Positions 290 to 41,185 of a stretch of 64,000 bases of DNA are shown here, in pieces. Below the pieces are notes generated by a model. It searched no databases, was not told where the DNA came from, and saw only the letters and a program-made list of their open reading frames with translations. How positions within the stretch are numbered: the stretch's first letter is position 1; every line of letters begins with the position of its first letter. The stretch is from contig JAZRKN010000009.1 of NCBI GenBank assembly GCA_045646345.1, forward strand, positions 25,355 to 89,354. The letters are read 5' to 3'. This DNA is from Candidatus Scatovivens sp. (GTDB lineage: Bacteria > Bacillota > Clostridia > TANB77 > CAG-508). The position numbers and the translations under genes are program-made.

Positions 290-3200
290 ATGAGAAATAA
301 TTCAAAAAATAATATAAAATTATTACTTATACTTATTATTGTTTTAGCTTTCATACCATATAAGCTTATTTTTTCGAAAGCGGAAGAAACTAATAATGAA
401 GTAGAAAAAAATACAATTATTGAATCTAATATAGAAACGACAAATTTGAATTTAGGTCAAGAAGAGAATATTGTATCAAATGAAGTACAAATTTCAAATG
501 ATAGAGAAACAGAAAATATTGTAAGTGAAAAATCAAATACAGAAACAAATACAACTGTAGAAAATGTGGTTACAGAAAAAAACAACGAAAATCAGGTTGT
601 CGAAAATGAAGTAAATGAGAATACTATAAATCAAAATACTATAAATCAAAATACAGTAGAGAATATTGTTTCAAAAGATGAATATGAAAATAAAGTTGCA
701 ACAAATGAAATATCAAATACAGTTGCTACATCAAATGAGAACGTTGCTATCGGAAATTTTGTTGTTAGTCAAGAAATGCAAGAATTATTAGGTGCTATGG
801 CAGAACCAGTTGATGAACCGGAAGTACAAGAGATTTCTGAAATTGGGTTAAAAGCAACTCTTTGGGATTCTGAACAATATAGTGCAGGAACTGGAACAGA
901 ATTAACAGAAGTTGGAGCAACAGTTAATAATTGGCAATTTGAAACAAATAAATATTTACAAATTGATCCAAAAGTAGTTGCTGATGGTAATACATACATT
1001 ATAACGGTTGAACTACCACAAGAATTTTATATAATAGGATCAGAATTATCTGTACCAACAGGATATCAAAATGTTAACTTTACAAAAAATGCAGAAATTG
1101 TGATAAATGATTCCCAAAAGTATGAATTAAAACCATATAGTGGAACAGCTGAATATACATTAAATAATATGGTTGAAAGTGGAACTATACAAATTGGTAT
1201 AGGATATGATGTTGTTTTGTGGGATAAACAAGAAAATTCTTCATTAACTCCGGATGGGGTTAATCCAATAACAGTTAAACTTTCAAAAAAAGAATCTGAT
1301 GGAACACTAACAGAATTAAATAGAGTACTAATTTCAAAAGCTTTTTCGGGAAGTAAAAATCAAGATGCGGTTAATGTAAATGGAATGTTAGAAGGGGAAT
1401 CTTCAGGATTATCAACTATTGTTGCAAATAAAGATGATAGAATTAAATTTGTAAAATCTATTAATAATAATGATGGTATGGTTAGATATAAATATTATAA
1501 ATCAGCAAAAATTACTGTAAAATTACCAAGCTATACTGATACTAATGGAAAAATACATTATTTATCTTTTGATGAATCAACTTTAGATTTATCAAAAGTT
1601 GCACATACTTCCAAAAATGTGGATTTATCGCAAGCTGATGCTGGTATAGTTACAATTGATTTAGTAAATCCTTACTGGAATTCTGGAACGTTAGTTGGAT
1701 TTGTTGTAGGCCCGCTTCCAGAAGAATTATTAGAACAAAATATAAATTCTTTTATATTTAAAAATGGAACTATAACAACTGTTGTTAATGGAAAAAATGG
1801 AAATAATAATATAACATATCGTACTTGTTCAATTCCATCAGTAGAATATCAAAAAGAAAGTTTAGAAAATGTAGTAATATCTTCACAAAATAAAGGTGTT
1901 ACTATAGTTGAAAGACCAAATGACGCAGTGTCAATTTTGGGAGGAATATATTTAGAAAACAAAGGTACTGGTGTAAGTTGTCCAAAAAATATTGATTTGA
2001 AATTCGACATTAATAATACAAATTTAATAAAAGTTACAACAATAAATATATTTGCTGACACGATACAAGAATATATAGATGTTACATATACATTGGTTGA
2101 TGAAAATGGAAATAGAGTATTTTTGGATAATAATGGAAATAGAGTTTCAGAAGGTTCTAATGAGGCGATTGGAGAATGGGTATATTCACTAAAAAATACA
2201 TATAAAAATTCAACAAAGAAAGAAAATTTAAAAAATACAATAACAAGAGGAAAATTACCTGAAGCACATAGACAATATTATTTTAAATCTGTAAATTATA
2301 ATTTAGAATCAATAAATGAACAAACTAGATTATATGCACCATCTTCAGTTTTAACTCTTACAGCTGCTGGTAATTTTTTAGGATATGTTGATGATTCAAG
2401 TGGAAATAATGAAAAAACAGCAGCTTCAAAAATGGTTGTTACATCATTAGATGCAGGTATTACTAATCTAGAAAGAACTGTAACTACAACACTTCAAAAT
2501 ACAAGTACGCCAACATATATAATTGATAATGCAACTATAAATAAAACAAAAATACAAGCTGGAGAATCATTTAATATTTCTGGAAAAGTAGTTACTCCTT
2601 CTTATCCATATGGAAATAGTACATGGTTAAAAAGAATAACTTTAGCTGTTAAACTTCCAAAAGATATTACAATAAATGAACAAGCAATTGTATTGAAAAA
2701 TGCGAAAGGACTATTAATAAGTGGTTCTACTGTTACAACTCAAGATATAGGTAATGGAAATATTTTATGGAAAATAAAATTACCAGAAGATATATGTATA
2801 GGAAGAGCTTCTGAAGATATAGGTACGTTACCTTCTGGAGATACAATATCATTTGATTTACAATTAGATACTTCATATACAATGAATGCAGTAACAATAT
2901 TTGTTAAAGATTTAGTAACTGTAGGTGCTTATAAACAATTGAATAATGCAAGCGGATCATATTCGTGGGCTTCTAAAGCGGATATATATGATATAAACGA
3001 AAATGGATCTACAACAGATAATATAGGTGGTATAAAATCAAGTAACGCTAGTGCATGTCAAATTATTTCTCAAACAGCTACGTTGGAAATTCAAGATTCT
3101 ATAAGTGTTGAATCAAATGGAATTGTTTCAGAGGAATCAAATGTCGGTAAGATTTTTTCAGTAGAAGATACTATCAATTATAATTTAGATATAGGATGTT

Positions 3201-5395
3201 TTAGTGGTGGTAGAGCAGAAGGGTTTGTTTATTACATACCAATTCCTAAAAAAACAACAATTACAGATAATTTCTTAATTGAAAATAGTAAGAATGGTAA
3301 ATTCGAACTTGAATTAACAGAAGAACCGATATATACAGGAACTAACATATTTGATTTAAGTTATGTTATGCAAGATGGAATTACATATGCTTCAGCTCCA
3401 AGTGTAACTAATTGGTACACAGCAGAACAAATAAATAATGATGATTCTTTAAATTTTGAAGATGTTACAATGATAAAATTAACAGTTAAAGATGCTGCTA
3501 TAAAAAATGGTGATAAAGTAAGAATTACATTAAAATTGAAATATGTAGGTGAAAGTTTTAGAGAAGAAGCTGGTAAAGAAAATATCTGGCATAGTGGTGG
3601 ATATTATAGATTTATAAACAGTGACAGAGAAAGTGCAGGAAATTTTGCAACAGAAGGTGTTTCTATAAAATTAAATTGTGAAGATATTGAACTTGATGAA
3701 ATAACATTAACTGCAGCAAGAGGTATGGTTCCAACTGGTGTGGGAAATGTTAATGTAGTAAATATATCAGAAACAGAATTCCCAATTTTTGAAAATGCTC
3801 ACACATTTGAAATAACAGATGTAGAAACTTACAATGTAATTTTAAAATCAAAAGATTATATGCTTGCTAATCCAGATATGCCGGGTATAGATGCAAATCA
3901 AAATTTTGCTATAACGGTAAATATGGGAACAAAAGAAGTAAATATATTAGAAAGTGCAAAAGAAAATCCTATTGAAATAGGAACTATTTCAGCAAATTCG
4001 TCACCAAGCTTCACTTACCAAATATATAATGCAGATGCTTTAAATGATAATTCGCAAATAAGATATATAATTGTAACGTTACAAAGTGAAAATGGAATAA
4101 CATTAAAACAAAAAATTAATATAAATAGAGAGGTTGTTCAAGCTTCAGATCCACAAATTGCTATAGTAGCAGGAAAAAGATATGTGACATTTGATGATTT
4201 AACGACAGATACAGTAATAAGTCAAGATTCATCATTTACAGCACAATTTATATTAGAATATATACCAAATACATATAAAGATGAGAGAATTACTTTTTCA
4301 AATGCTTTACCTGTCGGAACAAAAATAATATTAGAAAATTTTACTGATGAGGCAAATCCAACATATTGGTATTATTCAGTGAATTCTGCTATTTCTACAA
4401 TTAAATTAGAAGATTTTGTTGCAATGGGAAGAACTGGAAGTGATAATTACAATATGCCAAACGATTTGGATATTATAAAAGAAAAACTTTTAGTATTAGT
4501 TGATTTCTCTCAATGTTCAAATTGTCTTTCATCAGAAACATATTCAATAAAATTACAATTAACAGGAACAACTACAGATGTTGAAGATTTTGATTCAAAT
4601 GAATTGAAATTTTCGCTAAGAAATAAAAATACTTTTGTGTTAAATGAAATTTCAAATGCAAAAATGGGAGAAAAATTTAATATAAATTATACAATGAACT
4701 TGACCCAAGGTGCAGACACTAAATATGGAGGAAGAAAAGCTTCTTTGGTAATAACTGCTCCGGATAATATTCCATCAGATACTATGCTAACAATTCAAAA
4801 TAATGTGTATAATTTGAATGCTGAAAAGCAATTTATAGTATCGCTTGGAGATATAAAAACACAAACAAGTTCATTAGAAATGAATATCTTTTCTAATATG
4901 CAACCAGATGTGGAAACGATATATGAATTTGATATAGCATTATGGATTTCAGCAACTGCTAATGCTGATGCTCCAAAATTAGGAGAATTAATTTCTGCTA
5001 AAAAAATAAATATAACAACTAATAATGAGTTGAATCCTGCTCTTAAAGTAACAAATATAAGTTCAAGAATTATTAAAAAAGATGAACTAAATCAATTATA
5101 TACACTTGATTATAAGTACAAGCCGGATGCTAATTGCAAAGTAACTGTAGAATTACAACAAAAAATTGGTAGTGCTTATAAGAAAGTAACTGATAAATTA
5201 AATCAAGTAAATGGATCAACGGCTCATACAATGGGAACATTTGATATAAATCCTGATTCAGGAAATAATATATTAGAATTTAGATTGTCATCAATAACAG
5301 AAAAAGCAACATATAGAATTGTGTTTAAAGTTTGTGACGATGCAGGAACAACAATATTAGAAGTTCCATATAATTTTATAGTGTTAGACAAATAA
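290..5395 (+). CDS. Large secreted/surface protein of unknown function (1701 aa)
   Basis: N-terminal basic + hydrophobic signal, N/E/T-rich low-complexity stalk, long beta-rich body, DxNxNG-like motif (DINENGSTTD). No C-terminal LPxTG or TM. Confidence 0.75.
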   Translation: MRNNSKNNIKLLLILIIVLAFIPYKLIFSKAEETNNEVEKNTIIESNIETTNLNLGQEENIVSNEVQISNDRETENIVSEKSNTETNTTVENVVTEKNNENQVVENEVNENTINQNTINQNTVENIVSKDEYENKVATNEISNTVATSNENVAIGNFVVSQEMQELLGAMAEPVDEPEVQEISEIGLKATLWDSEQYSAGTGTELTEVGATVNNWQFETNKYLQIDPKVVADGNTYIITVELPQEFYIIGSELSVPTGYQNVNFTKNAEIVINDSQKYELKPYSGTAEYTLNNMVESGTIQIGIGYDVVLWDKQENSSLTPDGVNPITVKLSKKESDGTLTELNRVLISKAFSGSKNQDAVNVNGMLEGESSGLSTIVANKDDRIKFVKSINNNDGMVRYKYYKSAKITVKLPSYTDTNGKIHYLSFDESTLDLSKVAHTSKNVDLSQADAGIVTIDLVNPYWNSGTLVGFVVGPLPEELLEQNINSFIFKNGTITTVVNGKNGNNNITYRTCSIPSVEYQKESLENVVISSQNKGVTIVERPNDAVSILGGIYLENKGTGVSCPKNIDLKFDINNTNLIKVTTINIFADTIQEYIDVTYTLVDENGNRVFLDNNGNRVSEGSNEAIGEWVYSLKNTYKNSTKKENLKNTITRGKLPEAHRQYYFKSVNYNLESINEQTRLYAPSSVLTLTAAGNFLGYVDDSSGNNEKTAASKMVVTSLDAGITNLERTVTTTLQNTSTPTYIIDNATINKTKIQAGESFNISGKVVTPSYPYGNSTWLKRITLAVKLPKDITINEQAIVLKNAKGLLISGSTVTTQDIGNGNILWKIKLPEDICIGRASEDIGTLPSGDTISFDLQLDTSYTMNAVTIFVKDLVTVGAYKQLNNASGSYSWASKADIYDINENGSTTDNIGGIKSSNASACQIISQTATLEIQDSISVESNGIVSEESNVGKIFSVEDTINYNLDIGCFSGGRAEGFVYYIPIPKKTTITDNFLIENSKNGKFELELTEEPIYTGTNIFDLSYVMQDGITYASAPSVTNWYTAEQINNDDSLNFEDVTMIKLTVKDAAIKNGDKVRITLKLKYVGESFREEAGKENIWHSGGYYRFINSDRESAGNFATEGVSIKLNCEDIELDEITLTAARGMVPTGVGNVNVVNISETEFPIFENAHTFEITDVETYNVILKSKDYMLANPDMPGIDANQNFAITVNMGTKEVNILESAKENPIEIGTISANSSPSFTYQIYNADALNDNSQIRYIIVTLQSENGITLKQKININREVVQASDPQIAIVAGKRYVTFDDLTTDTVISQDSSFTAQFILEYIPNTYKDERITFSNALPVGTKIILENFTDEANPTYWYYSVNSAISTIKLEDFVAMGRTGSDNYNMPNDLDIIKEKLLVLVDFSQCSNCLSSETYSIKLQLTGTTTDVEDFDSNELKFSLRNKNTFVLNEISNAKMGEKFNINYTMNLTQGADTKYGGRKASLVITAPDNIPSDTMLTIQNNVYNLNAEKQFIVSLGDIKTQTSSLEMNIFSNMQPDVETIYEFDIALWISATANADAPKLGELISAKKINITTNNELNPALKVTNISSRIIKKDELNQLYTLDYKYKPDANCKVTVELQQKIGSAYKKVTDKLNQVNGSTAHTMGTFDINPDSGNNILEFRLSSITEKATYRIVFKVCDDAGTTILEVPYNFIVLDK
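620..654 (+). repeat. 15-bp tandem repeat (NTINQ x2 plus partial)
   Basis: aatactataaatcaa twice, then aatac. Confidence 0.8.
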
Positions 5396-5435: not shown

Positions 5436-6365
5436 TTAAATTTTATTATTTGTTCTTCTTTTTGGAAGTGGCTTTGAAGAGATTACTGTTGGCGAAACTT
5501 CAAAAACAATATTAAAACAATCAAATTTATACATTTCATTATTATCTAAATAATCTAAGTAAATATCAAGTTCATCAATATTTCTACAAGCCGCTATAAT
5601 TGCTGGATGTAGGTTGTAATTGAAAAATAATTCAACTCCTAATTCTAGTCCGTCTTTTGTTGATAGATTTTCTTTGTTCTTTATCAATTTAAAGGCTTCT
5701 TTAAATCTAGATATTGAAGCATTTTTGAAGAACGATAATGGAATTGTATAATGTGTTTGAATAATTTCTTCATATGATGAAAATTTATTTTTATTAGCAG
5801 AAAAGATTTGCTCTAATTCATGATATGTATATGGTAAAAAAACAGTTTGTTTTGTTTCTGAAATTACTAGAGTGTTTTCTCTTTTTAAGTCTTCTGGTAA
5901 ATTATTTTTTAATTCTTCGAAATTGACAATAGGATCAGCTTCAGTTAATTCTAATTTTATATTTATGTTTTGGTCTGAAAATTGATTTAATGCTTTTTCA
6001 ATTTGTAGAGTATTTAATTGAACAGTACTATAAGCTTCCGAAAAAGTAGAATTAAAGTTGTTAATTTTTTCTTCAGTTAGTGAATTCATGTTATTCTCTT
6101 TTATTGCATTTGTTAGAATTGTAAGCAATAGGTTTAATTTATTTAAAATTGCAATATTAGAATTAGAAACTTCAAGAGTTTCTTTTAGAAAATTTACTAT
6201 TTCTGGGGTTGAATTATTTTTTTGAAATTTATCAAGATATTTTGAAATAGTTTCTTTTTTTATGTTTTGTACATCTAACATTGATGATAAAATCTTTTTT
6301 TCATAATCCAAAAGCATATTAAATTTTTCATGATTTTTAATTAATTCTTCTGTAAAAAATATCAT
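5436..6365 (-). CDS. Hypothetical protein (coiled-coil N-half, globular C-half)
   Basis: 309-aa ORF with a GAGGTG RBS upstream on the minus strand. No recognised motif. Confidence 0.75.
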   Translation of the reverse strand: MIFFTEELIKNHEKFNMLLDYEKKILSSMLDVQNIKKETISKYLDKFQKNNSTPEIVNFLKETLEVSNSNIAILNKLNLLLTILTNAIKENNMNSLTEEKINNFNSTFSEAYSTVQLNTLQIEKALNQFSDQNINIKLELTEADPIVNFEELKNNLPEDLKRENTLVISETKQTVFLPYTYHELEQIFSANKNKFSSYEEIIQTHYTIPLSFFKNASISRFKEAFKLIKNKENLSTKDGLELGVELFFNYNLHPAIIAACRNIDELDIYLDYLDNNEMYKFDCFNIVFEVSPTVISSKPLPKRRTNNKI

Positions 6366-6578: not shown

Positions 6579-9500
6579 ATGACTAGAAAAAAAGTAGGAA
6601 AATTTTTATTATATATAATAATTGCTATGCTTATTATTTCTTCATGTTACTGTTTTTGGTCTTATTTTTCCAAAGGTAAACAAAAAATAACAGTAAAAAC
6701 AAGTAACAATTGTTATAGTGGTGAAAGTATTAATGCTACTATTGCTGTAATGAATGTTAAAACTAATAAAGCGATAGATGCAAAAATCACAGCAACATTA
6801 TATGATAGTGATGACAAGAAAGTAAAAGATGTTGTTACTAAAATGGAAATTGAAAAAGGAGAAGCTGGAGAATTAGCTTTAAATGTACCGGAAGACTTAA
6901 AAAGTGGAAAGTATACTTTAAAGATAAAATCTAATTCGGGATTTTATTCCGATACAGCAGAAATTCCAATTAATGTTAAAAATGATAAAAAGTCAAATGT
7001 GATAATTTCTTTTGATAAAGGGATTTATAAACCTGGAGATGAAATTAATTATAGAATTTTAATGCTTTCTAAAAGAGATGAAACTCCTTTGAGTCAGAAT
7101 ATTAAAGTTTCAATATATGATGGAAATGATAATAGAGTTTATATAGAAGAAGCTGTGACTTCTGAATATGGTATTATTTCAGGAAAGTTTAAATTAGCAG
7201 ATGAGGTTAATAGTGGTACTTATAAATTAAAAGTTGAATCTGATAGACAGGAAGTTACAAAAACTTTTAATGTAAATCCATATATAATTCCAACCTTTGA
7301 AGTTGAAGTTTCATCAGATAAAGATAATTATATTGTTGGAGATGTGGCTAAAATAAAGGTAGATGCTAAATACTTTTTTGGAGAGCCTGTAAAAAAAGCT
7401 GAAATAAAAGGAACTGTTGACGGAAAAGAAGTTGTTGGATTGACAGATGAAAACGGAAGTTTTACATACGAATATAAATTTGGAAAAGCTTCTAAAATAG
7501 TTGCAGATTTTACTGTGGTAGATTCATCTAATTATTTGATAGAGGCGTCAAAAATATTATGTTGTGGAACAGCATTATATGAAGTTGAAGTTATTCCAGA
7601 ATATTCAGATATAGCTTATGGATTTGATAATGATATATATGTAATTACTAAAAAAATAGATGGAACTCCAGTTAAAACTTATTCAACATTAAAAATAGGA
7701 AAAATTTCAAAACAAGTAATTTCTGATGAAAATGGAATCGGAAAAGTTACAATAACATCTAGCGAAACAGAAGAATTACCAAAAAAAGAAATGCTATCTG
7801 TTAAAGTTGAATCTGAAGATATGGAGTCAAACAAAGTAACAAAAACACATCAATTATTAATTCATGATGCATTTCCTAATTTAATAAAAACGAACAAAAC
7901 AAAATACAATGCTGGAGAAGATATTGAAATAAAATTAAATTCAAAAGTGAATACAAATACCAAAAATATATATGTCTTCAAAAGTAATGAACTTATTAAA
8001 ACTATTGTTACAGATGATGATAATGTGAAAATTAATTTAGGCGATGTCTCAGGGTTAGTTGATTTATATATTCCAAATCAAAAAAATATGTCAACAATAT
8101 ATAATTATTATGATGATTTTTATGAAACTTATAAAGTTAATATAGATTATTCTAAAAAGACAATTTTTATAAAACCAGAGAAAGAACTAAATATTTTAGT
8201 AGAACCGGTAAAAGATGAATATAAACCAGGAGATACTTTAGATGTTAAGTTCACTACAACTAATGAACAAAATGAGTTGGTAAATTCTGCTTTATTAGTG
8301 AGTATTTTAGATGAAGCGATACTTGCGTTAGCTGATAATGATTTGTCTATTGATAATATAAAATTAGCGTTAGAAGATATTGTTTTAGAACCAGGTATGA
8401 CTGCTGCAGATTTATATGTAATGGCACTAGACGAATCTTCAGATCTTGCTTTTAATTCTGTATTATTAAAACAAAAAGTAACAAATCCAGATATTTATAC
8501 TAAAAATTATAGAAATTACGAAACAGAAATATATTTGATGTTTGGAATTATAGCTATTATAGTAGCTGCAATTTTAATAGCTTTAAGTTATATTGCTAAG
8601 AATAAAGAAAAAGTAGCTAAAGTGATAATTCCGGTAATAGATGTTTTGGCAATATTTATTTTAATGTATATATATGCTGAGGAAGTATTCGGTTTAATAG
8701 ATAATTTATTTATGGTATTTGCAACATTTATTCTTTCAATAATTGCGTATTTGTTGTTCTTGTATAAAGAACGTGACTTTATATTTAAATTAGTATCAGA
8801 AATGATTGTAATTCCAATTGTCTCAATAATAGGAATATTCTTGATTTCTATATTAGTATCTTTGGTATTTGATATATATATACCAAAAATATTTGCTTTA
8901 GTTTTAGGTGTAGTCGTTTTATTAATATTATTAGAGTTTGCTATATTAAAATCATTACAAAGAAAAAGAGGATTAAATAAAGTTTTAACAAAGATTTTTG
9001 AGTTTTCAAAACTAATTTCAAGAGCTGTTGTATTTTGGTTTTTAACAATAGTATTAACAGAAATTACAGAATTTGGATTACTAATAGTTCTTGCTCTTTA
9101 TTATTTATATAGAAAATTTATATTAAAAGAAGCAAAAACTAAAGTAGAAGATGGGAAAATAGTATTAAATTTAAATGTTTCTGAATTAGTGGGAATGCTA
9201 ATAGGAATGTTATTAATTATAATTGTTATAGTAATAGTAATTTCTTCTAATTTAAATGATTATAGAGTAATGAATGATTCTGTAACTTCAGATGTTACGG
9301 CTCCTAGTTTACCTATGAAGGATTCGACAACAAATTCAAGTACTGTAACATTAGATTTTAGTCAAGTTACAGAGGATATGATAATCTCAGGAGCGTCTGA
9401 TGCTACAGGAGCGGGAAGTAGCATAAATAATTCATTCGGTTCAATGTTTGATTTTGATTTGAATATTATGCAAGATTCAAAAGCCGAATCATCTGTTGAG

Positions 9501-11636
9501 ATGTCTACAGAAGATTTTGTTTCAGAAGGTGATAATTCAAATGAAATAGAAAATGAAATAGAAGAAAATGTTAGAAATGTATTTTTAGAAAGCTTAGCAT
9601 TTATTCCAGAATTAGTTACAGAAAATGGTGTAGCAAATTTTAAAACAGAGATTAGTGATAATATAACAACTTGGAATATTCAAACAATAGGAAATACAAA
9701 AGAAGGAAATGTAGGATTTGGTTCAGGAAGTTTTAAAGTATTTAAAGAATTTTTTGTAGAATATACTCTTCCGGCAAATTCGGTTGTTACAGATAAAGTA
9801 AGTATTCCAGTAACACTACATAATTATACAGAAAAAAATCTAATAATTGATTTATTAGTAAAAGAAAATGATTGGGCGATTATTGGTGATTATGAAAAAC
9901 AAAATGTAGTTGAAGCTAAATCAACAAAAATGATATATGTACCAATTGAAATTTTAAAAGATGGAAACAATACATTAAGAATAGAAGCGAATTCAGGAAA
10001 AAAATCAGATATAGTTGAAAAAACGTTAGTTGTTAAACCTAATGGTTTAGAAAAAAATGTAGTAGTTTCAAGCGGAATGATTGAAAATAAATATTCTCAA
10101 GATATCATATTTAATGAAAAAGCGATTGAAAAAACTGAAAAAATAAAAGTAAAATTATATGCATCGCCAGTTGTTCAAGCGATAGAAAATATAGATGCTA
10201 TGTTAAGAATGCCAACAGGATGTTTTGAACAAACTTCTTCTTCGTTATATCCAGATATTTTAGTTTTGAAATATTTAAGAGAACATGATTTAAGTAATAA
10301 AGAATTAGAAGAAAAAGCGTTAAATTATATATCTAAGGGATATCAAAAGTTATTAACTTATGAAGTAAAAACTAAAAAAGGTGGATATTCATTGTATGGA
10401 TATGCACCAGCAGAACCTGTAATAACAGCCTTTGGGTTAATGGAATTTAATGAACTTTCAGAAGTTTATGAAGTTGAAGAAAAAGTTATTGATAATATGG
10501 TTGAGTATTTATTTGATGTTCAAAATGTAAATGGAAGTTTTGATTATAATACTGTTTATATTGGTGGAACTGCTAGTAGAGATGATTTAGCAATGAATGC
10601 ATATATTATTTGGGCTTTATCAGAGGTTGTTCCAAATGATAAGAGATTAGAAAAATCAATAAGTTATTTAGAAAATAAATTAGATAAAATTAAAGATAAC
10701 TATACATTAGCATTAATTGCAAATATTTTTGCTAATACTGATAATAAGAATTCAGCAAATGAAGTTTTAAAAATGATAAATCAAAATATTAAAGTAACAG
10801 AAAATGGTGCTTATATTGCTTCAAATATTTCGGATTATTATGGAACAAGAGGTAATCATCAAAATAACCAAGCGACAGCACTAACATCAATGGCTTTGAC
10901 TAAACTAAATTCAAATCAAAAAAATAATGAAGAATTTGTAAAATTCTTAGTAAGTCAAAAAGATAAATATGGAAGTTGGGGAACAACACAAGCAACAGTA
11001 CTTGCATTAAAAGCAATTAATAGCTTTACTCAAAATTCTGATATTAAAGATCAAACAATAACTATAAAATTAAATGATAAAGAAGAAAAAATAGAAATAA
11101 AAGAAAATGCTTTAGATGTTTATGAAGTAGAGTTTGATAATGTATCAAAAGAAAATAGATTATTAATTGATATGAAAAAAGGTAAAATAACATATGAAGT
11201 AATTAAAAATTATTATCAAAGTTATGCAGAAATAGATGATGATTTACAAAATGAGAATAAATTAAGTGTAGTACAGAACTTAAGTAGTGTAGCAAAAGTA
11301 AACGATATAATTACTCAAAACATATCAATAAAAAATAATAAAACATATATTGAAAATGGATTGATAGAAATTAATATACCACAAGGAACTACTCCGGTAG
11401 AAGCTTCATTAATGAATTTGAAATATAATGGAATAATTGAAAAATATGAATATAATTATAATAAAATTAATCTTTATATAAGGGGATTTGAACCTGGAGA
11501 AGAAGTATTATTGGATATTCAATATAGAGCATTATATCCAGAAAATATTACTGGTGGAGCAATAAGATTTTTTGATTATTATAATCCAGAAATTGAAGAA
11601 ATTTGTTACCCAAAAGTTCTTATAGTAGAAGAATAA
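6579..11636 (+). CDS. Alpha-2-macroglobulin family thioester protein with an internal polytopic membrane segment
   Basis: GGAGG RBS; N-terminal TM; MG-domain motifs DKGIYKPGD and YKPGD; thioester motif PTGCFEQT (CFEQ 10221-10232); WGTTQATVLAL; C-terminal FDYYNPE. Confidence 0.9.
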   Translation: MTRKKVGKFLLYIIIAMLIISSCYCFWSYFSKGKQKITVKTSNNCYSGESINATIAVMNVKTNKAIDAKITATLYDSDDKKVKDVVTKMEIEKGEAGELALNVPEDLKSGKYTLKIKSNSGFYSDTAEIPINVKNDKKSNVIISFDKGIYKPGDEINYRILMLSKRDETPLSQNIKVSIYDGNDNRVYIEEAVTSEYGIISGKFKLADEVNSGTYKLKVESDRQEVTKTFNVNPYIIPTFEVEVSSDKDNYIVGDVAKIKVDAKYFFGEPVKKAEIKGTVDGKEVVGLTDENGSFTYEYKFGKASKIVADFTVVDSSNYLIEASKILCCGTALYEVEVIPEYSDIAYGFDNDIYVITKKIDGTPVKTYSTLKIGKISKQVISDENGIGKVTITSSETEELPKKEMLSVKVESEDMESNKVTKTHQLLIHDAFPNLIKTNKTKYNAGEDIEIKLNSKVNTNTKNIYVFKSNELIKTIVTDDDNVKINLGDVSGLVDLYIPNQKNMSTIYNYYDDFYETYKVNIDYSKKTIFIKPEKELNILVEPVKDEYKPGDTLDVKFTTTNEQNELVNSALLVSILDEAILALADNDLSIDNIKLALEDIVLEPGMTAADLYVMALDESSDLAFNSVLLKQKVTNPDIYTKNYRNYETEIYLMFGIIAIIVAAILIALSYIAKNKEKVAKVIIPVIDVLAIFILMYIYAEEVFGLIDNLFMVFATFILSIIAYLLFLYKERDFIFKLVSEMIVIPIVSIIGIFLISILVSLVFDIYIPKIFALVLGVVVLLILLEFAILKSLQRKRGLNKVLTKIFEFSKLISRAVVFWFLTIVLTEITEFGLLIVLALYYLYRKFILKEAKTKVEDGKIVLNLNVSELVGMLIGMLLIIIVIVIVISSNLNDYRVMNDSVTSDVTAPSLPMKDSTTNSSTVTLDFSQVTEDMIISGASDATGAGSSINNSFGSMFDFDLNIMQDSKAESSVEMSTEDFVSEGDNSNEIENEIEENVRNVFLESLAFIPELVTENGVANFKTEISDNITTWNIQTIGNTKEGNVGFGSGSFKVFKEFFVEYTLPANSVVTDKVSIPVTLHNYTEKNLIIDLLVKENDWAIIGDYEKQNVVEAKSTKMIYVPIEILKDGNNTLRIEANSGKKSDIVEKTLVVKPNGLEKNVVVSSGMIENKYSQDIIFNEKAIEKTEKIKVKLYASPVVQAIENIDAMLRMPTGCFEQTSSSLYPDILVLKYLREHDLSNKELEEKALNYISKGYQKLLTYEVKTKKGGYSLYGYAPAEPVITAFGLMEFNELSEVYEVEEKVIDNMVEYLFDVQNVNGSFDYNTVYIGGTASRDDLAMNAYIIWALSEVVPNDKRLEKSISYLENKLDKIKDNYTLALIANIFANTDNKNSANEVLKMINQNIKVTENGAYIASNISDYYGTRGNHQNNQATALTSMALTKLNSNQKNNEEFVKFLVSQKDKYGSWGTTQATVLALKAINSFTQNSDIKDQTITIKLNDKEEKIEIKENALDVYEVEFDNVSKENRLLIDMKKGKITYEVIKNYYQSYAEIDDDLQNENKLSVVQNLSSVAKVNDIITQNISIKNNKTYIENGLIEINIPQGTTPVEASLMNLKYNGIIEKYEYNYNKINLYIRGFEPGEEVLLDIQYRALYPENITGGAIRFFDYYNPEIEEICYPKVLIVEE

Positions 11637-36880: not shown

Positions 36881-39800
36881 ATGAAAAAATTAGTTAGTTT
36901 AACATATCCGCAAAAATCAATACTACTTACAGAGAAGTTTTACAAAAATGCTTCTATGAATAATATTTGTGGGACAGCAATTATCGATTCTGTTCTTGAT
37001 TTTGATGCGTTAAAACAAGCAATAAAAGTTGTAATAAAGGAAAATGATGTATTCCATATTCACTTATCTCAAAAGAAAAATGAAGTAAAACAATTTATAT
37101 CATATAATGAAATTACTGATATAGAAATAATAGATATAAAAGATGAATCAGAAGTATACTTAATAGAAGATGCATTGATGGCAAAACAATTTAATTTATA
37201 TGAATCTGATTTATTTGAGTTTAAAATTTTTAGATTTGAAAATGGTGCTGGAGGTTTTTTATTAAACATTCATCACATTATTTCTGATGGTTGGACATTA
37301 GGTTTAACTTGTAGAAAAATTATGAAAGCATATTCAAATATTAAAAATAATGAAAACGGAGAAGAAGAGACTTTTTCGTATATTGATTATGCAAAAAATG
37401 AAGAAGAATATTTTAATAGTTTAAAATTTCAAAAAGATAAAGAATACTGGAATGAATTATTTTCAGAAAATATAAATCCAGCAATTTTACCTTCAGATAG
37501 TTCTGAGAAAAATACAGAATTTTCATGTTTAGGAGAAAGAATGACTTTCTCTATTCCAAAAGCCAAAATGAAAATAATTAATGAATATTGTAGTAAAAAT
37601 AAATTGACTGTATTCAATTTTCTTATGGCAATTTATTCAGTTTATATTTCAAAAATTATTGGTTCAGATGATTTTAGTATTGGAACACCAATATTAAATA
37701 GAACAAATTTTAAAGAGAAAAATATAATTGGTATGTTTGTAAATGTTGTTCCTTTTAAAGTAAAGGTAGAACAATCTGCAGACTTTATTAGTTTTGCAAG
37801 TAATCTTTCAAAAGATACTGTTTCATTATTAAGACATCAAAAATATCCATATCAAATGTTATTAGAAGATTTGAGAAAAAAAGACTCTTCAATTCCAAAT
37901 CTTTATAACGTTGTTTTGTCATATCAATTAACAAAAGCTAACAATGAAACTGAATACAAATATTCAACTAGATGGGCATTCAATAAGAATGTAACTGACG
38001 ATATGACTATTCAATTTTTGGATTTAGATGAACAAGGAATATTAACTGTTTGTTATGATTTTAAAAAATTAAAATATTCAAATGAATATGTGAAAAATAT
38101 GCATTCTAGAATTTTAGAAATGATTAATAAAGTCTTAGAAACAGAAAATATATGTGTAAAAGATATAGAAATCATTACTAAAAATGAAAGAGAAAAACTT
38201 TTAGTTGATTTTAATAATACTGAAGTTAAATATGATAAAAATAAGAATGTAATAAAAACATTTAAAGAAATGGTAAAAAAATACCCAGAGAAAATTGCTA
38301 TAAGCTTTGAAAATAGACAAATGACTTATAAAGAATTGAATCAAAAATCAAATATTTTAGCTAATAGTTTAATTAAAGAAGGAGCAAAAGCAAAAGATAT
38401 AATTGCTATTTGTGTAAATCGTTCTTTGGAATTAGCTATTGGTCTTTTAGCAATATTAAAAGTTGGAGCAGCATATTTACCAATAGATCCAGAATATCCA
38501 GAAGATAGAATTGAGTATATGTTAACAGATAGTAATGCTAAAATGATACTTTCAAATAAGAGAACTCAAAGTGCAATAAATGAAAAAATAAAAATAAAAA
38601 GAATTGATATTGGATTAGAATCTACTGTTTACAATAGAGAAAATATAGAAATTGAAGAAAAAATATTACCAGAAGATTTGATTTATTTGATATATACTTC
38701 AGGTTCTACTGGAAAACCAAAGGGTGTTATGTTAAAACACAAAAATATAATTAATTTCTTACTTGGAACAAAGGAAGTTATTGATTTTAATCCAGAAAAA
38801 ATAATGGTATCAATAACTACAATATGTTTTGATATATTCGTTTTAGAATTTTGGGGTGCATTAACTTCTGGTATGACATTGGTTTTAGCAAATGAAGTAG
38901 AACAAAATAATGCTGTGGCGTTAAATAAACTTTGTTTAGAAAATAAAGTAACTATGATTCAAACCACTCCTTCTAGATTTAAAGCATTACTTGAAAATAA
39001 ATCTGCAACTGAGTTTGTCAAAAAAATGACAGATATTATGGTTGGAGGAGAAGGACTACCAAAAGGTTTGATTGACAAGTTTGAAGGTTTAACTAATGCT
39101 AATATTTTTAATATGTACGGTCCAACTGAAACGGCAGTATGGTCTACTATTAAAAAGGTTAGAAGCAAAGATAAAATTACAATAGGAAAACCGATTGCAA
39201 ATACTAAATGCTATATTTTGGATAAAGATCAAAATATACTTCCAATATATGTTCCAGGGGAATTATATATCGGTGGGGATGGAGTTTCTAGAGGATATTT
39301 AAATAGAGATGAATTAACAAATGAGAAATTCATTAAATCTCCATTTGAAAAAAATGAGATTATTTATAATACAAATGATTTGGCTTATTATACAAATAGT
39401 GGAGAAATAGTTCATTTAGGAAGAACTGATTTTCAAGTTAAAATTAGAGGTTATAGAATTGAGCTTGAAGAAATTGAAAACGAAGTAAATAAGATACCTG
39501 GAATTTTAAATAATGTGGTAGTGGCAGATGAAAATCAAAAATATTTGATTTGTTATTATATATCTAATGAAATTCAAGATACCAATAAAATAACTGCTAG
39601 TCTACTAAAAGAACTTCCTAATTATATGATACCAGCGGTATTTTTCAAGATTGATGAATTTCCACTTACTCCAAATGGAAAATTGGATAGAAAAAAATTA
39701 CCGAAAGTAAAATTAGAAACAACAAATCTTAATGTAGGACAAACAAAGACAGAGAAAATCTTAACTAAAATTATTGCTGAAATTTTAGAAGTAGAAAAAG

Positions 39801-41185
39801 TAGATATAGATACACCTTTTATGGTATTAGGATTAGATTCTTTGGGAATTATTGAGGCGCAAACAATGCTTCTTCAATATAATTACAATTTAAATACACA
39901 AGACTTTTATAAATTTACAACTATAAGAAGTTTGGCTGAAAATATAGACAGTAATTCGAAGAGTGATAAAAATCAAGATTATCAAATACCAGAAAAATTC
40001 AAACATAATATAGAAAAAAATGATTTAGATGATTTGACTAAAGAAAATGATTCACTAGGAAATGTATTTTTGACAGGAGCAAATGGTTTTATAGGAATAC
40101 ATTTGTTAAATGAATTATTAAAAAATACAGAGTCTAAAATTTATTGCTTAGTAAGAGGTAAGAGAGAACAAACTCCAAAAGAAAGATTGATAGAACAATA
40201 CAAATTTTACTTTGGAGAAGATTTATCAAGTTATTTAGAGAGTAGAGTTATTGTTGTTGACGGTTCTATTTCAGAAAATAATATAGGATTAACAGATAAT
40301 GTGATAAAAAAATTAAAAGAAGATGTTTCAACAGTAATACATACAGCAGCTAGAGTAAAACACTATGGAGAATATAAAGAATTTGAAAGAATAAATATTG
40401 ATGGAACAAGAAATGTAGCTGAGTTTTCTTTAGAAAATAATTTTAAACTTATACATATATCTTCAATAAGTGTATCTGGAAATTATCTTGTAAAGCAAGA
40501 TAATAGAGATTTAGATTTTACAGAAAATGATTTATATATAGGACAAAATTATAAAGATAATGTATATGTTAATAGTAAATTCGAAGCGGAAAAAATAGTA
40601 TTAGACTATATGGAAAAAGGATTAGTTTCGCAAATCCATAGAATTGGAATTTTGTCAGGAAGATTTTCGGATGGTAAATTTCAAGAAAATATATCAGAAA
40701 ATGCATTTTATACAAGAATAAAGTCAATGGTTGTTTTAGGATGCGTTTCAAAAGAAATGTTAGAACAAAAAATAGAATTTACACCAGTTGATGTTTGTTC
40801 TAAAGCGATAATAAATCTTGCAAAAACGAATGTTGCAGATAATAAAGTTTTCCATTTATACAATCATAATTTTATTGAAATTAGAGAGATTGTAGAAGGA
40901 TTAAAATCTATTGGAGTTAATATTAAGATTGTTTTTGAAGAGGAATTCCAAAATAAAATATTAGAAATTTCAAAAGGAAAAGATGCTCAAATTTTATTTG
41001 GAATAATAAATGATATAAATAATACAAAAAATTCAAAGATATCTATTGACTATAATTTTTCTGTAAATATAAAATCTGATTACACACAAAAATATTTGAA
41101 AAGTTTAAAAACAGAATGGAATAAGATTGATAAAAAATATATAGAAAAAATTGTAAAATACATGAGAGAAGTTAAGTTTATTTAA
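36881..41185 (+). CDS. Single-module NRPS, C-A-T-R (condensation, adenylation, thiolation, terminal thioester reductase)
   Basis: C: HHIISDG (37271). A: YTSGSTGKPKG, NMYGPTE, GRTDFQVKIRGYRIEL, NGKLDR. T: LGLDSL (Ser 39839). R: TGANGFIG and YVNSK. Confidence 0.95.
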   Translation: MKKLVSLTYPQKSILLTEKFYKNASMNNICGTAIIDSVLDFDALKQAIKVVIKENDVFHIHLSQKKNEVKQFISYNEITDIEIIDIKDESEVYLIEDALMAKQFNLYESDLFEFKIFRFENGAGGFLLNIHHIISDGWTLGLTCRKIMKAYSNIKNNENGEEETFSYIDYAKNEEEYFNSLKFQKDKEYWNELFSENINPAILPSDSSEKNTEFSCLGERMTFSIPKAKMKIINEYCSKNKLTVFNFLMAIYSVYISKIIGSDDFSIGTPILNRTNFKEKNIIGMFVNVVPFKVKVEQSADFISFASNLSKDTVSLLRHQKYPYQMLLEDLRKKDSSIPNLYNVVLSYQLTKANNETEYKYSTRWAFNKNVTDDMTIQFLDLDEQGILTVCYDFKKLKYSNEYVKNMHSRILEMINKVLETENICVKDIEIITKNEREKLLVDFNNTEVKYDKNKNVIKTFKEMVKKYPEKIAISFENRQMTYKELNQKSNILANSLIKEGAKAKDIIAICVNRSLELAIGLLAILKVGAAYLPIDPEYPEDRIEYMLTDSNAKMILSNKRTQSAINEKIKIKRIDIGLESTVYNRENIEIEEKILPEDLIYLIYTSGSTGKPKGVMLKHKNIINFLLGTKEVIDFNPEKIMVSITTICFDIFVLEFWGALTSGMTLVLANEVEQNNAVALNKLCLENKVTMIQTTPSRFKALLENKSATEFVKKMTDIMVGGEGLPKGLIDKFEGLTNANIFNMYGPTETAVWSTIKKVRSKDKITIGKPIANTKCYILDKDQNILPIYVPGELYIGGDGVSRGYLNRDELTNEKFIKSPFEKNEIIYNTNDLAYYTNSGEIVHLGRTDFQVKIRGYRIELEEIENEVNKIPGILNNVVVADENQKYLICYYISNEIQDTNKITASLLKELPNYMIPAVFFKIDEFPLTPNGKLDRKKLPKVKLETTNLNVGQTKTEKILTKIIAEILEVEKVDIDTPFMVLGLDSLGIIEAQTMLLQYNYNLNTQDFYKFTTIRSLAENIDSNSKSDKNQDYQIPEKFKHNIEKNDLDDLTKENDSLGNVFLTGANGFIGIHLLNELLKNTESKIYCLVRGKREQTPKERLIEQYKFYFGEDLSSYLESRVIVVDGSISENNIGLTDNVIKKLKEDVSTVIHTAARVKHYGEYKEFERINIDGTRNVAEFSLENNFKLIHISSISVSGNYLVKQDNRDLDFTENDLYIGQNYKDNVYVNSKFEAEKIVLDYMEKGLVSQIHRIGILSGRFSDGKFQENISENAFYTRIKSMVVLGCVSKEMLEQKIEFTPVDVCSKAIINLAKTNVADNKVFHLYNHNFIEIREIVEGLKSIGVNIKIVFEEEFQNKILEISKGKDAQILFGIINDINNTKNSKISIDYNFSVNIKSDYTQKYLKSLKTEWNKIDKKYIEKIVKYMREVKFI

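Follow-up and report, generated by a model that had tools for sequence, protein, structure and literature searches.

Gene and domain architecture

The window analysed here is a stretch of 64,000 nucleotides from Candidatus Scatovivens sp. (contig JAZRKN010000009.1, positions 25,355 to 89,354), and the element under study is its alpha-2-macroglobulin (A2M) gene at window positions 6579–11636. The encoded protein of 1685 residues carries a predicted eight-helix membrane domain directly ahead of its bait region, and the bait resembles a pilin encoded elsewhere in the same genome, a resemblance that we interpret, with some reserve, as a decoy for pilin-cutting proteases. The features of the gene are listed below by window position and strand; residue numbers refer to the protein.

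6579–11636, +: whole open reading frame (ORF), thioester alpha-2-macroglobulin with polytopic insert, 1685 residues (ORF call, Pfam, PDB sequence match)
6603–6659, +: N-terminal membrane anchor, residues 9–27, with basic residues ahead of it, predicted N-in (hydropathy, charge)
6681–8318, +: MG1–MG5 and first half of MG6, residues ~35–580, inner boundaries approximate
7281–7292, +: MG2–MG3 linker motif Y235-x-x-P238, counterpart of A2ML1 Tyr214–Pro217, the channel for the trigger plug (invariant in 112/112)
8319–8513, +: LNK region, residues 581–645 (helical in the AlphaFold2 model; 60% mean pairwise identity)
8529–9245, +: predicted eight-helix membrane insert, residues 651–889 (hydropathy, loop charge, model)
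9228–9296, +: outer end of helix 8 and exit, residues 884–906, site of the putative Tad-type pilin mimic, strong in many relatives and vestigial here
9246–9569, +: bait region, residues 890–997, disordered and fast-evolving
9336–9446, +: putative VirB2-like pilin mimic, residues 920–956, against residues 24–60 of pilin G000:C14:133442-133825
9570–10163, +: second half of MG6, MG7 and first part of CUB, residues 998–1195
9573–9587, +: BR-C plug R999-x-x-F1002-L1003, counterpart of A2ML1 Arg730–Pro734 with Leu for Pro (R999 and F1002 invariant in 112/112)
10164–11033, +: thioester domain (TED), residues 1196–1485, with Gly at the catalytic-His column
10218–10232, +: thioester motif GCFEQ, residues 1214–1218 (in 121/121 family proteins)
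11034–11633, +: second part of CUB and MG8, residues 1486–1685, with invariant Y1667–Y1668

Four Pfam models (MG2, from residue 141; A2M_BRD; A2M; TED_complement) exceeded their cut-offs in the ORF. The domains follow the A2M-family order, in which MG domains, an MG6 split by LNK and bait, CUB, TED and MG8 succeed one another; LNK and bait are described as an insert inside MG6 (PMC9156758). A region search retrieved 265 proteins, and the family figures given here were taken from the 120 relatives listed, which together with this protein make 121. The residues corresponding to the plug-in-channel trigger described for A2ML1 (PMC9156758), namely Y235, P238, R999 and F1002, were invariant in all 112 full-length family proteins, with Leu or Val at the column of Pro734. 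C1215, Q1218, Y1667 and Y1668 were likewise invariant across the family. The aligned column of the catalytic His was occupied by Gly in 108 of the 112 proteins, and any His within residues 1318–1340 was present in only seven; because the catalytic His is absent, capture of amines (lysine) by the thioester is predicted. Judged from its residues, the ORF encodes an intact A2M trap that retains the trigger residues and has a predicted thioester function. A scan for promoters and terminators at the locus gave chance-level results, and no RNA data set was listed as containing it.

Topology of the membrane insert

Window positions 8529–9569 correspond to residues 651–997, of which residues 651–889 are strongly hydrophobic. 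The insert helices were placed at residues 651–672, 680–700, 710–729, 742–764, 771–791, 813–829, 832–846 and 870–889. At one hydropathy threshold the insert gave seven peaks in addition to the N-terminal anchor, the sixth peak being a hairpin of two short helices, and simple counting across the 121 family proteins returned eight helices in 73 and seven in 48. A preliminary description of this DNA had proposed an approximately eight-helix domain beside the bait, with basic loops and a following S/T/D/E-rich stretch; this layout was found as claimed, with MG6 resuming at residue 998 and GCFEQ at residues 1214–1218.

The loop charges favour eight helices. Four of the loops are basic and are separated by three that are acidic or neutral: across the 112 full-length proteins, the mean number of Lys and Arg residues was 3.2, 2.9, 6.8 and 5.7 in loops 1–2, 3–4, 5–6 and 7–8, against 0.3, 0.3 and 0.2 in loops 2–3, 4–5 and 6–7. 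A per-protein test of this alternation, with a threshold set by the analyst, was passed by 111 of the 112. Given an N-in anchor, an even helix count with both halves of the trap outside is therefore predicted, and the proposal that the trap is fixed to the membrane at its trigger point is upheld. On the cytoplasmic side lie a tail of 8 residues and loops that do not exceed about 26.

An AlphaFold2 model of residues 430–1200, built from a 32-sequence alignment, reached a mean pLDDT of 65 and a pTM of 0.40. The insert was helical at pLDDT values of about 75–85, with helices 3 and 4 given as one continuous DSSP run, and residues 892–1004 fell below 50 and were disordered. Y724, L728, Y729 and P746 are conserved within the insert. 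The slot between LNK and bait is the position that the anaphylatoxin occupies in complement (PMC9156758).

Searches for the insert as a stand-alone family were negative: ESM Atlas gave no usable match, Pfam only a sub-threshold DUF4519, and an insert profile run against five genomes only weak partial matches (E 3e-4 or worse). An insert alignment search among proteins of 141–517 residues found nothing and also missed fragments of the A2M family itself, which makes it a weak negative. Whole-model fold searches were filled by MG domains, and the insert may yet have a known fold or donor.

Resemblance of the bait to pilins of the same genome

Two pilin systems of this genome are concerned. On contig C14, seven VirB2/TrbC-like genes lie in tandem ahead of a VirB4-like ATPase gene (G000:C14:133442-140321, L283), with an intervening gene that we take to be PrgI-like. 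The first of these pilins (G000:C14:133442-133825) matched Pfam T4SS_pilin PF18895 above its cut-off. Similar arrays were present in 37 of the 40 A2M-bearing genomes searched, which suggests a lineage-wide system resembling type IV secretion systems (T4SS), one that goes unmentioned in the accessible part of PMC11680825. On contig C15, a Tad-type pilin with a single N-terminal helix (G000:C15:107746-108246) lies downstream of ParA-like, TadA and TadB/C genes, with a TadA-like match. This layout agrees with Table 1 of PMC11680825 for the TANB77 cluster, whose pilin-like proteins that study links to immunotherapy response, and on this ground the organism is taken to be of the TANB77 type. The Tad-type pilin itself had no Pfam match; it occurred in 39 of 40 A2M-bearing genomes against 36 of 61 in a sample of the order, the genomes being kin and not independent.

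The resemblance to the VirB2-like pilin is the clearer one in this protein. Residues 920–956 align without gaps to residues 24–60 of the first VirB2-like pilin, with 18 of 37 residues identical, and the core of that pilin is not copied in the bait. When the bait was compared with the whole proteome, this pilin was the top non-self match, with a Smith-Waterman score of 96 against 68 for the next, low-complexity, match, and phmmer gave E values of 6.2e-7 and 0.78 for the pilin and the next protein. Among 36 genomes (two others having been dropped), the N-terminus of the genome's own VirB2-like pilin ranked first in nine; for the protein studied here the own-genome score was 96 against 79 for the best other genome, and none of 10000 permutations reached the observed ranking. 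A weak NCBIfam match to an AB5 B-subunit model (E 0.005, far below the cut-off) was set aside as chance.

The Tad-type resemblance came to light through an unexpected match of the A2M family profile to a small C15 gene. When 5562 ORFs were searched with a profile built from helix 8 and the segment leaving it, two Tad-cluster pilin-like proteins came directly behind the A2M (E 4e-9 and 4e-5), the next match being at 0.003, and profiles of the other insert helices gave no non-self match better than 3e-4. In the reciprocal direction, the pilin retrieved the A2M in three of five genomes. Because the match is genome-specific, no more than 9 of 153 family rows had E values under 0.1 with a general pilin profile. 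Among the 38 genomes with both genes scored (three were dropped for parsing), the own Tad-type pilin ranked first in 17, ties included (permutation 0/10000); after dereplication it was strictly first in 12 of 22 (permutation 0/10000). The match extends to 17 of 18 identical residues (L022), and the invariant first 24 residues of the Tad pilin are not copied. The shared motifs are lineage-specific (L034, L033, L040, L043, L008, L025, L014, L022, L038, L016, L031 and L039) and therefore do not represent an ancestral relic. Small proteins of G567 and G530 that matched the helix-8 region, presumably VanW-type, were treated as low-complexity chance.

The preliminary description had called the region behind the helices a disordered stretch. 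It is indeed S/T/D/E-rich and disordered; what had gone unnoticed are the mimics of self pilins within helix 8 and this stretch.

Controls and evolutionary rates

At least one clear pilin mimic was detected in 20 of 36 genomes, and three control pairings on 28 genomes were null. Synonymous codon choice was compared at the identical residues of bait and pilin. Agreement was found at 124 of 227 positions, with 121 expected, for the 17 best Tad-type pairs, and at 63 of 141, with 68 expected, for ten VirB2-like pairs. As synonymous codons agree at chance level, the likeness is kept by selection on the protein, and recent gene conversion was rejected as a general cause of the mimics.

The bait is the least conserved region of the family, with a mean identity of 23% against 63% for TED. 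The ratio of nonsynonymous to synonymous substitution rates (dN/dS) in six close pairs, which do not include this protein and one of which was undefined, was 0.29–1.5 in the bait, 0.31–0.43 in the insert and 0.10–0.26 in the core. Among the strain variants listed (37 coding of 40), nonsynonymous and synonymous changes stood at 10:3 in the bait and 8:16 elsewhere (p 0.017).

Similar signs were seen in unrelated lineages. The last helix of L161 matched the N-terminal helix of DUF1559 above the cut-off, that of L143 matched GspG weakly, that of L123 gave no match, and P0142 carries a T2SSG domain at the bait-slot site. A search of the literature, covering open-access papers, found no description of the insert architecture or of pilin mimicry.

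Distribution, assembly and genomic context

All of the at least 120 relatives listed, which come from TANB77-type gut Clostridia, keep both the insert and GCFEQ. Full-length matches were present in 7 of 301 genomes of the order, this genome included. A search of the class returned 1 of 399 genomes at E 1e-20, and a search of 401 genomes of the phylum found a full-length match in a single one; in both cases it was the genome studied here. In the GTDB genomes 43 A2M loci were located, of which 31 are intact, 4 run into a contig end and 8 are broken up into several ORFs. The genes split into two or three ORFs (L013, L016, L021, L023, L036, L037, L041 and L042) are pseudogenes or assembly errors. 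Both insert junctions of the present gene are bridged by contigs from independent public runs, for example X4 at 7647–8805 and 8973–10759, none of which spans the whole gene. These contigs and the recurrence of the architecture in 120 listed clusters rule out an assembly chimera, one of the outcomes that the preliminary description had said would undo it, and supply the homologues with the same insert that it had called for.

No conserved partner gene was found near the A2M gene; a GAPDH gene was present in 20 of 44 loci. In the family loci examined the gene never adjoined pilus genes. The earlier remark that no PBP1C gene lies adjacent was confirmed, and no protein of the genome scored above the TIGR02073 cut-off. 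Among 20 other Bacillota A2Ms that were fetched, the baits were short and none had internal helices. A second, short-bait A2M type of about 1550–1700 residues occurs in other genomes of the order (G402, G411, G414, G416, G425, G451, G669 and others), and both types are present in G628 and G486. L074 and L076 are classic-type A2Ms of another Bacillota family with a C-terminal extension, which we take to resemble VanW.

Three further ORFs of the window were recorded. One gene upstream of the A2M gene, positions 290–5395 encode a protein of 1701 residues whose N-terminal part has a hydrophobic helix and for which no Pfam model passed its cut-off. Positions 5436–6365 (− strand) encode a 309-residue protein without a Pfam match, relatives of which lie near the A2M gene in L025, L026 and L035. 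The ORF at 36881–41185 (1434 residues) begins with a region resembling, by eye, a non-ribosomal peptide synthetase condensation domain.

Relationship to animal A2Ms and diversity of the insert slot

The best PDB sequence matches were CD109, A2ML1, A2M and TEP1, at E 5e-45 for the protein and 3e-60 for a profile of its C-terminal half (CD109), whereas the Salmonella and E. coli A2Ms were reached by profile only at E 0.007–0.04. Fold searches agreed, with animal A2Ms among the top matches together with C3/C5. The protein thus belongs to an animal-like clade, and the E. coli YfhM used as its comparator in the preliminary description was the wrong one. In a FastTree tree of 75 cores the family formed one clade, sister to two proteins with 7–8 helices and apart from the classic Bacillota A2Ms, and helix-bearing lineages were interspersed with helix-less ones rather than forming one clade.

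Thirty longer relatives outside the family were compared, and 17 of them held about 2, 6, 8 or 12 helices at the same slot, counts that shift by one at other thresholds. Other longer relatives hold soluble T2SSG, CarboxypepD or TonB-plug domains there. Long metagenome ORFs, a sample seeded with helix-bearing proteins, had helices in 9 of 57 and none in 48. Inserts of different lineages showed no detectable homology, their HHalign probabilities (at most 15.6%) being like those of unrelated membrane controls. Single 'helices' in L132, L149 and L151 proved to be Gly/Val-rich repeats and were left out of the count. Of 24 relatives examined, 3 (P0129, P0130 and P0134) have a lipobox-like motif following the final helix of the insert. 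No such insert was seen in the accessible text on archaeal A2M homologues (PMC8416519).

An anti-sigma-like N-terminus was fused to 5 of 12 helix-bearing and 0 of 26 helix-less distant relatives, all five lying directly behind a gene for an extracytoplasmic function (ECF) sigma factor; ECF pairs also precede five helix-less loci, and one distant helix-bearing relative carries a Ser/Thr kinase. The proteins combining helix inserts with an N-terminal zf-HC2 anti-sigma-like domain behind an ECF gene, or with a Ser/Thr kinase, are L102, L123, L130, L134, L137, L161, P0129, P0131 and P0133. Such zf-HC2- or kinase-fused animal-like A2Ms are candidate protease-sensing receptors. The helix-less P0142, P0143, P0132, P0139, L132, L149 and L151 carry T2SSG with CarboxypepD, CarboxypepD with TonB-plug, or Gly/Val/Pro repeats in the bait slot. 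The repeats presumably resemble TonB linkers, and these soluble domains and repeats are possibly decoys of other envelope proteins.

Proposed mechanism and alternative explanations

The reading that we favour, with slightly better than even confidence, is that the bait is a membrane-presented decoy that copies the cell's own pilins and traps pilin-cutting proteases. The eight-helix insert would let the chain enter the membrane and re-emerge, with helix 8 running N-in/C-out like a pilin subunit, and the mimics would be displayed at the membrane surface while both A2M halves stay outside. A protease with sequence specificity, whether from a competitor, a prey cell, a phage or the host, that would otherwise shear pili or destroy the pilin pool of the membrane would cut the decoy instead. 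After the cut, the R999–F1002 plug would retract, TED would swing out and the His-less thioester would link to a lysine of the protease. The trapped protease would remain tethered at the cell surface, as expected from an MG6 common to both halves and from the two anchors of the N-terminal half. Since an A2M fires only when its bait is cut, and this bait appears to be selected to resemble exposed segments of 15–37 residues from two unrelated pilins, we infer proteases with extended pilin specificity. Release of helix 8 into a pilus by a prepilin peptidase was also considered and was rejected, as the invariant N-terminal residues of the pilin are not copied and MG6 ties the halves together. On a broader scale we put forward, as a possibility somewhat short of even, an integrated-decoy immune system whose mimics are continually updated against sequence-specific pilus-cutting gut proteases, with the slot loaded with pilin, pseudopilin or transporter decoys across the clade and an ECF-wired alarm in some lineages.

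Several observations weigh against the decoy reading. The Tad-type mimic of this very protein is not significant, as its score of 37 is a tie and is equalled or exceeded by several unrelated membrane segments out of 1686, and default blastp gave no VirB2-like match for the bait. The C-terminal 'NFAG' resemblance tracks genomes weakly (first in 3 of 36; permutation 143/10000), the tracked genomes are related and not independent, and 16 of 36 genomes gave no clear mimic among the pilins within about 1.5 kb each side of the best pilin match. The bait and pilin genes of L034 share a 28-base exact DNA match, and gene conversion may occasionally seed a mimic. Seven of the eight helices, including the conserved Y724, L728, Y729 and P746, are unexplained by a decoy role. 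No pilin-cutting protease was identified. Finally, docking of the segments to the pili of the same cell, or to its pilin-processing enzymes, would predict own-genome tracking just as well.

This last point leads to an alternative that we regard as unlikely, in which the mimics are self-recognition tags. They would bring the trap to the pili of its own cell or to the machines that assemble them, or the own pilin-maturing peptidase would cut the bait, either as a two-chain maturation like that of complement by furin or as a feedback brake on pilus assembly. Such tags would need the same own-genome tracking, and of the VirB2-like pilin it is the predicted mature N-terminus and the C-terminus that are mimicked, the two places where TrbC/VirB2 maturation enzymes act. 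The enrichment of the Tad-type pilin in A2M-bearing genomes (39 of 40 against 36 of 61, among kin) and the position of the insert at complement's furin-cut anaphylatoxin slot (PMC9156758) are likewise in keeping with it. What is copied, however, are variable exposed segments and not the invariant first 24 pilin residues or the VirB2-like core; two unrelated pilin folds are mimicked in tandem within a disordered loop, the A2M gene never adjoins pilus genes, and a resident enzyme that cut the bait should set off the thioester all the time.

It is improbable, in our judgement, that the protein is an ordinary broad-spectrum, doubly anchored trap for gut proteases, in which the helices serve only to hold the bait down, letting the membrane complete the cage, and the likeness to pilins is a by-product of occasional DNA copying. 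The long S/T/D/E-rich disordered bait would suit such a trap, as would the genomes without a clear mimic, the single 28-base exact match and the many helix-less clade members (48 of the 57 long metagenome ORFs). Yet 17 of 18 identical residues (L022) with chance-level synonymous codons cannot persist unselected in the fastest-evolving part of the protein, and pilin-like last helices recur in unrelated lineages. Very unlikely, in turn, is a sensing role in which protease attack leads to a transmembrane signal or to loss of the thioester half, outcomes that the preliminary description had suggested. The insert is under purifying selection (dN/dS 0.31–0.43), and the anti-sigma fusions behind ECF genes in helix-bearing distant relatives, together with the kinase-bearing one, fit a sensor; these counts are tempered by the ECF pairs ahead of five helix-less loci and by the seeding of the metagenome sample with helix-bearing proteins. 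The family itself has no cytoplasmic domain beyond its short tail and loops, and an ECF sigma gene lay upstream in none of the 36 loci with enough upstream DNA, so that transmission is not supported for this protein and the idea holds for the distant anti-sigma- or kinase-fused relatives. Shedding is unlikely as well, as the halves share MG6 and the fragments of bait-cleaved MagD are reported to stay associated (PMC5764988).

Comparison with known systems

The protein is like CD109, A2ML1, A2M and mosquito TEP1 in its MG6 split by LNK and bait, its plug-in-channel residues and its CxEQ motif, and, as in them, there is no space for a further pair of N-terminal MG domains such as ECAM-type proteins have. 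It differs from them in having two membrane anchors, the N-terminal helix and the eight-helix insert at the anaphylatoxin slot. Unlike the hydroxyl-reactive CD109, TEP and A2ML1, it has no catalytic His. A basic furin site is also absent, and its bait appears to copy self pilins. With the type I A2Ms of E. coli (ECAM/YfhM) and Salmonella (Sa-A2M) it shares a bacterial origin, a membrane tether, a thioester and a bait, but the sequences are barely similar, and it lacks a lipobox, a PBP1C partner and the two extra N-terminal MG domains.

The type II MagD of Pseudomonas is likewise membrane-held, and its fragments are reported to remain together after bait cleavage (PMC5764988). MagD has no thioester, needs the separate membrane protein MagB and belongs to a six-gene operon, whereas the present protein contains its own anchor and is encoded by a solitary gene. 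ECF anti-sigma factors and one-component membrane receptors have a cytoplasmic output domain or an adjacent ECF sigma gene, features seen in 0 of 36 family loci and only in distant relatives. The TANB77 Tad pilin-like proteins (PMC11680825) and the T4SS_pilin/TrbC-VirB2 pilins are the mimicked proteins; only their variable exposed segments are copied, and the A2M is no pilin. A further analogy is with the integrated decoy domains of plant NLR receptors, where a copy of what the attacker really aims at is built into a defence protein. The proteins are unrelated, and here the predicted output is covalent protease trapping by decoy segments of 15–37 residues on a membrane helix.

Significance

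The analysis exposes an animal-like A2M clade whose LNK–bait slot accepts membrane bundles, mostly with even helix counts, and it describes protein-level self-mimicry between unlinked genes that is maintained by selection. The targeting principle, a bait that copies self pilins, is probably new. As to what bacterial A2Ms naturally target, the bait would here name the likely substrate class. Pilus-cutting proteases could be sought in gut contents with the protein itself as a covalent probe. If the decoy reading is true, each bait would be a readable record of the surface protein under attack and a ready-made probe for its attacker, pointing to a hitherto unrecognised arms race in which the pili of TANB77-type Clostridia are contested.

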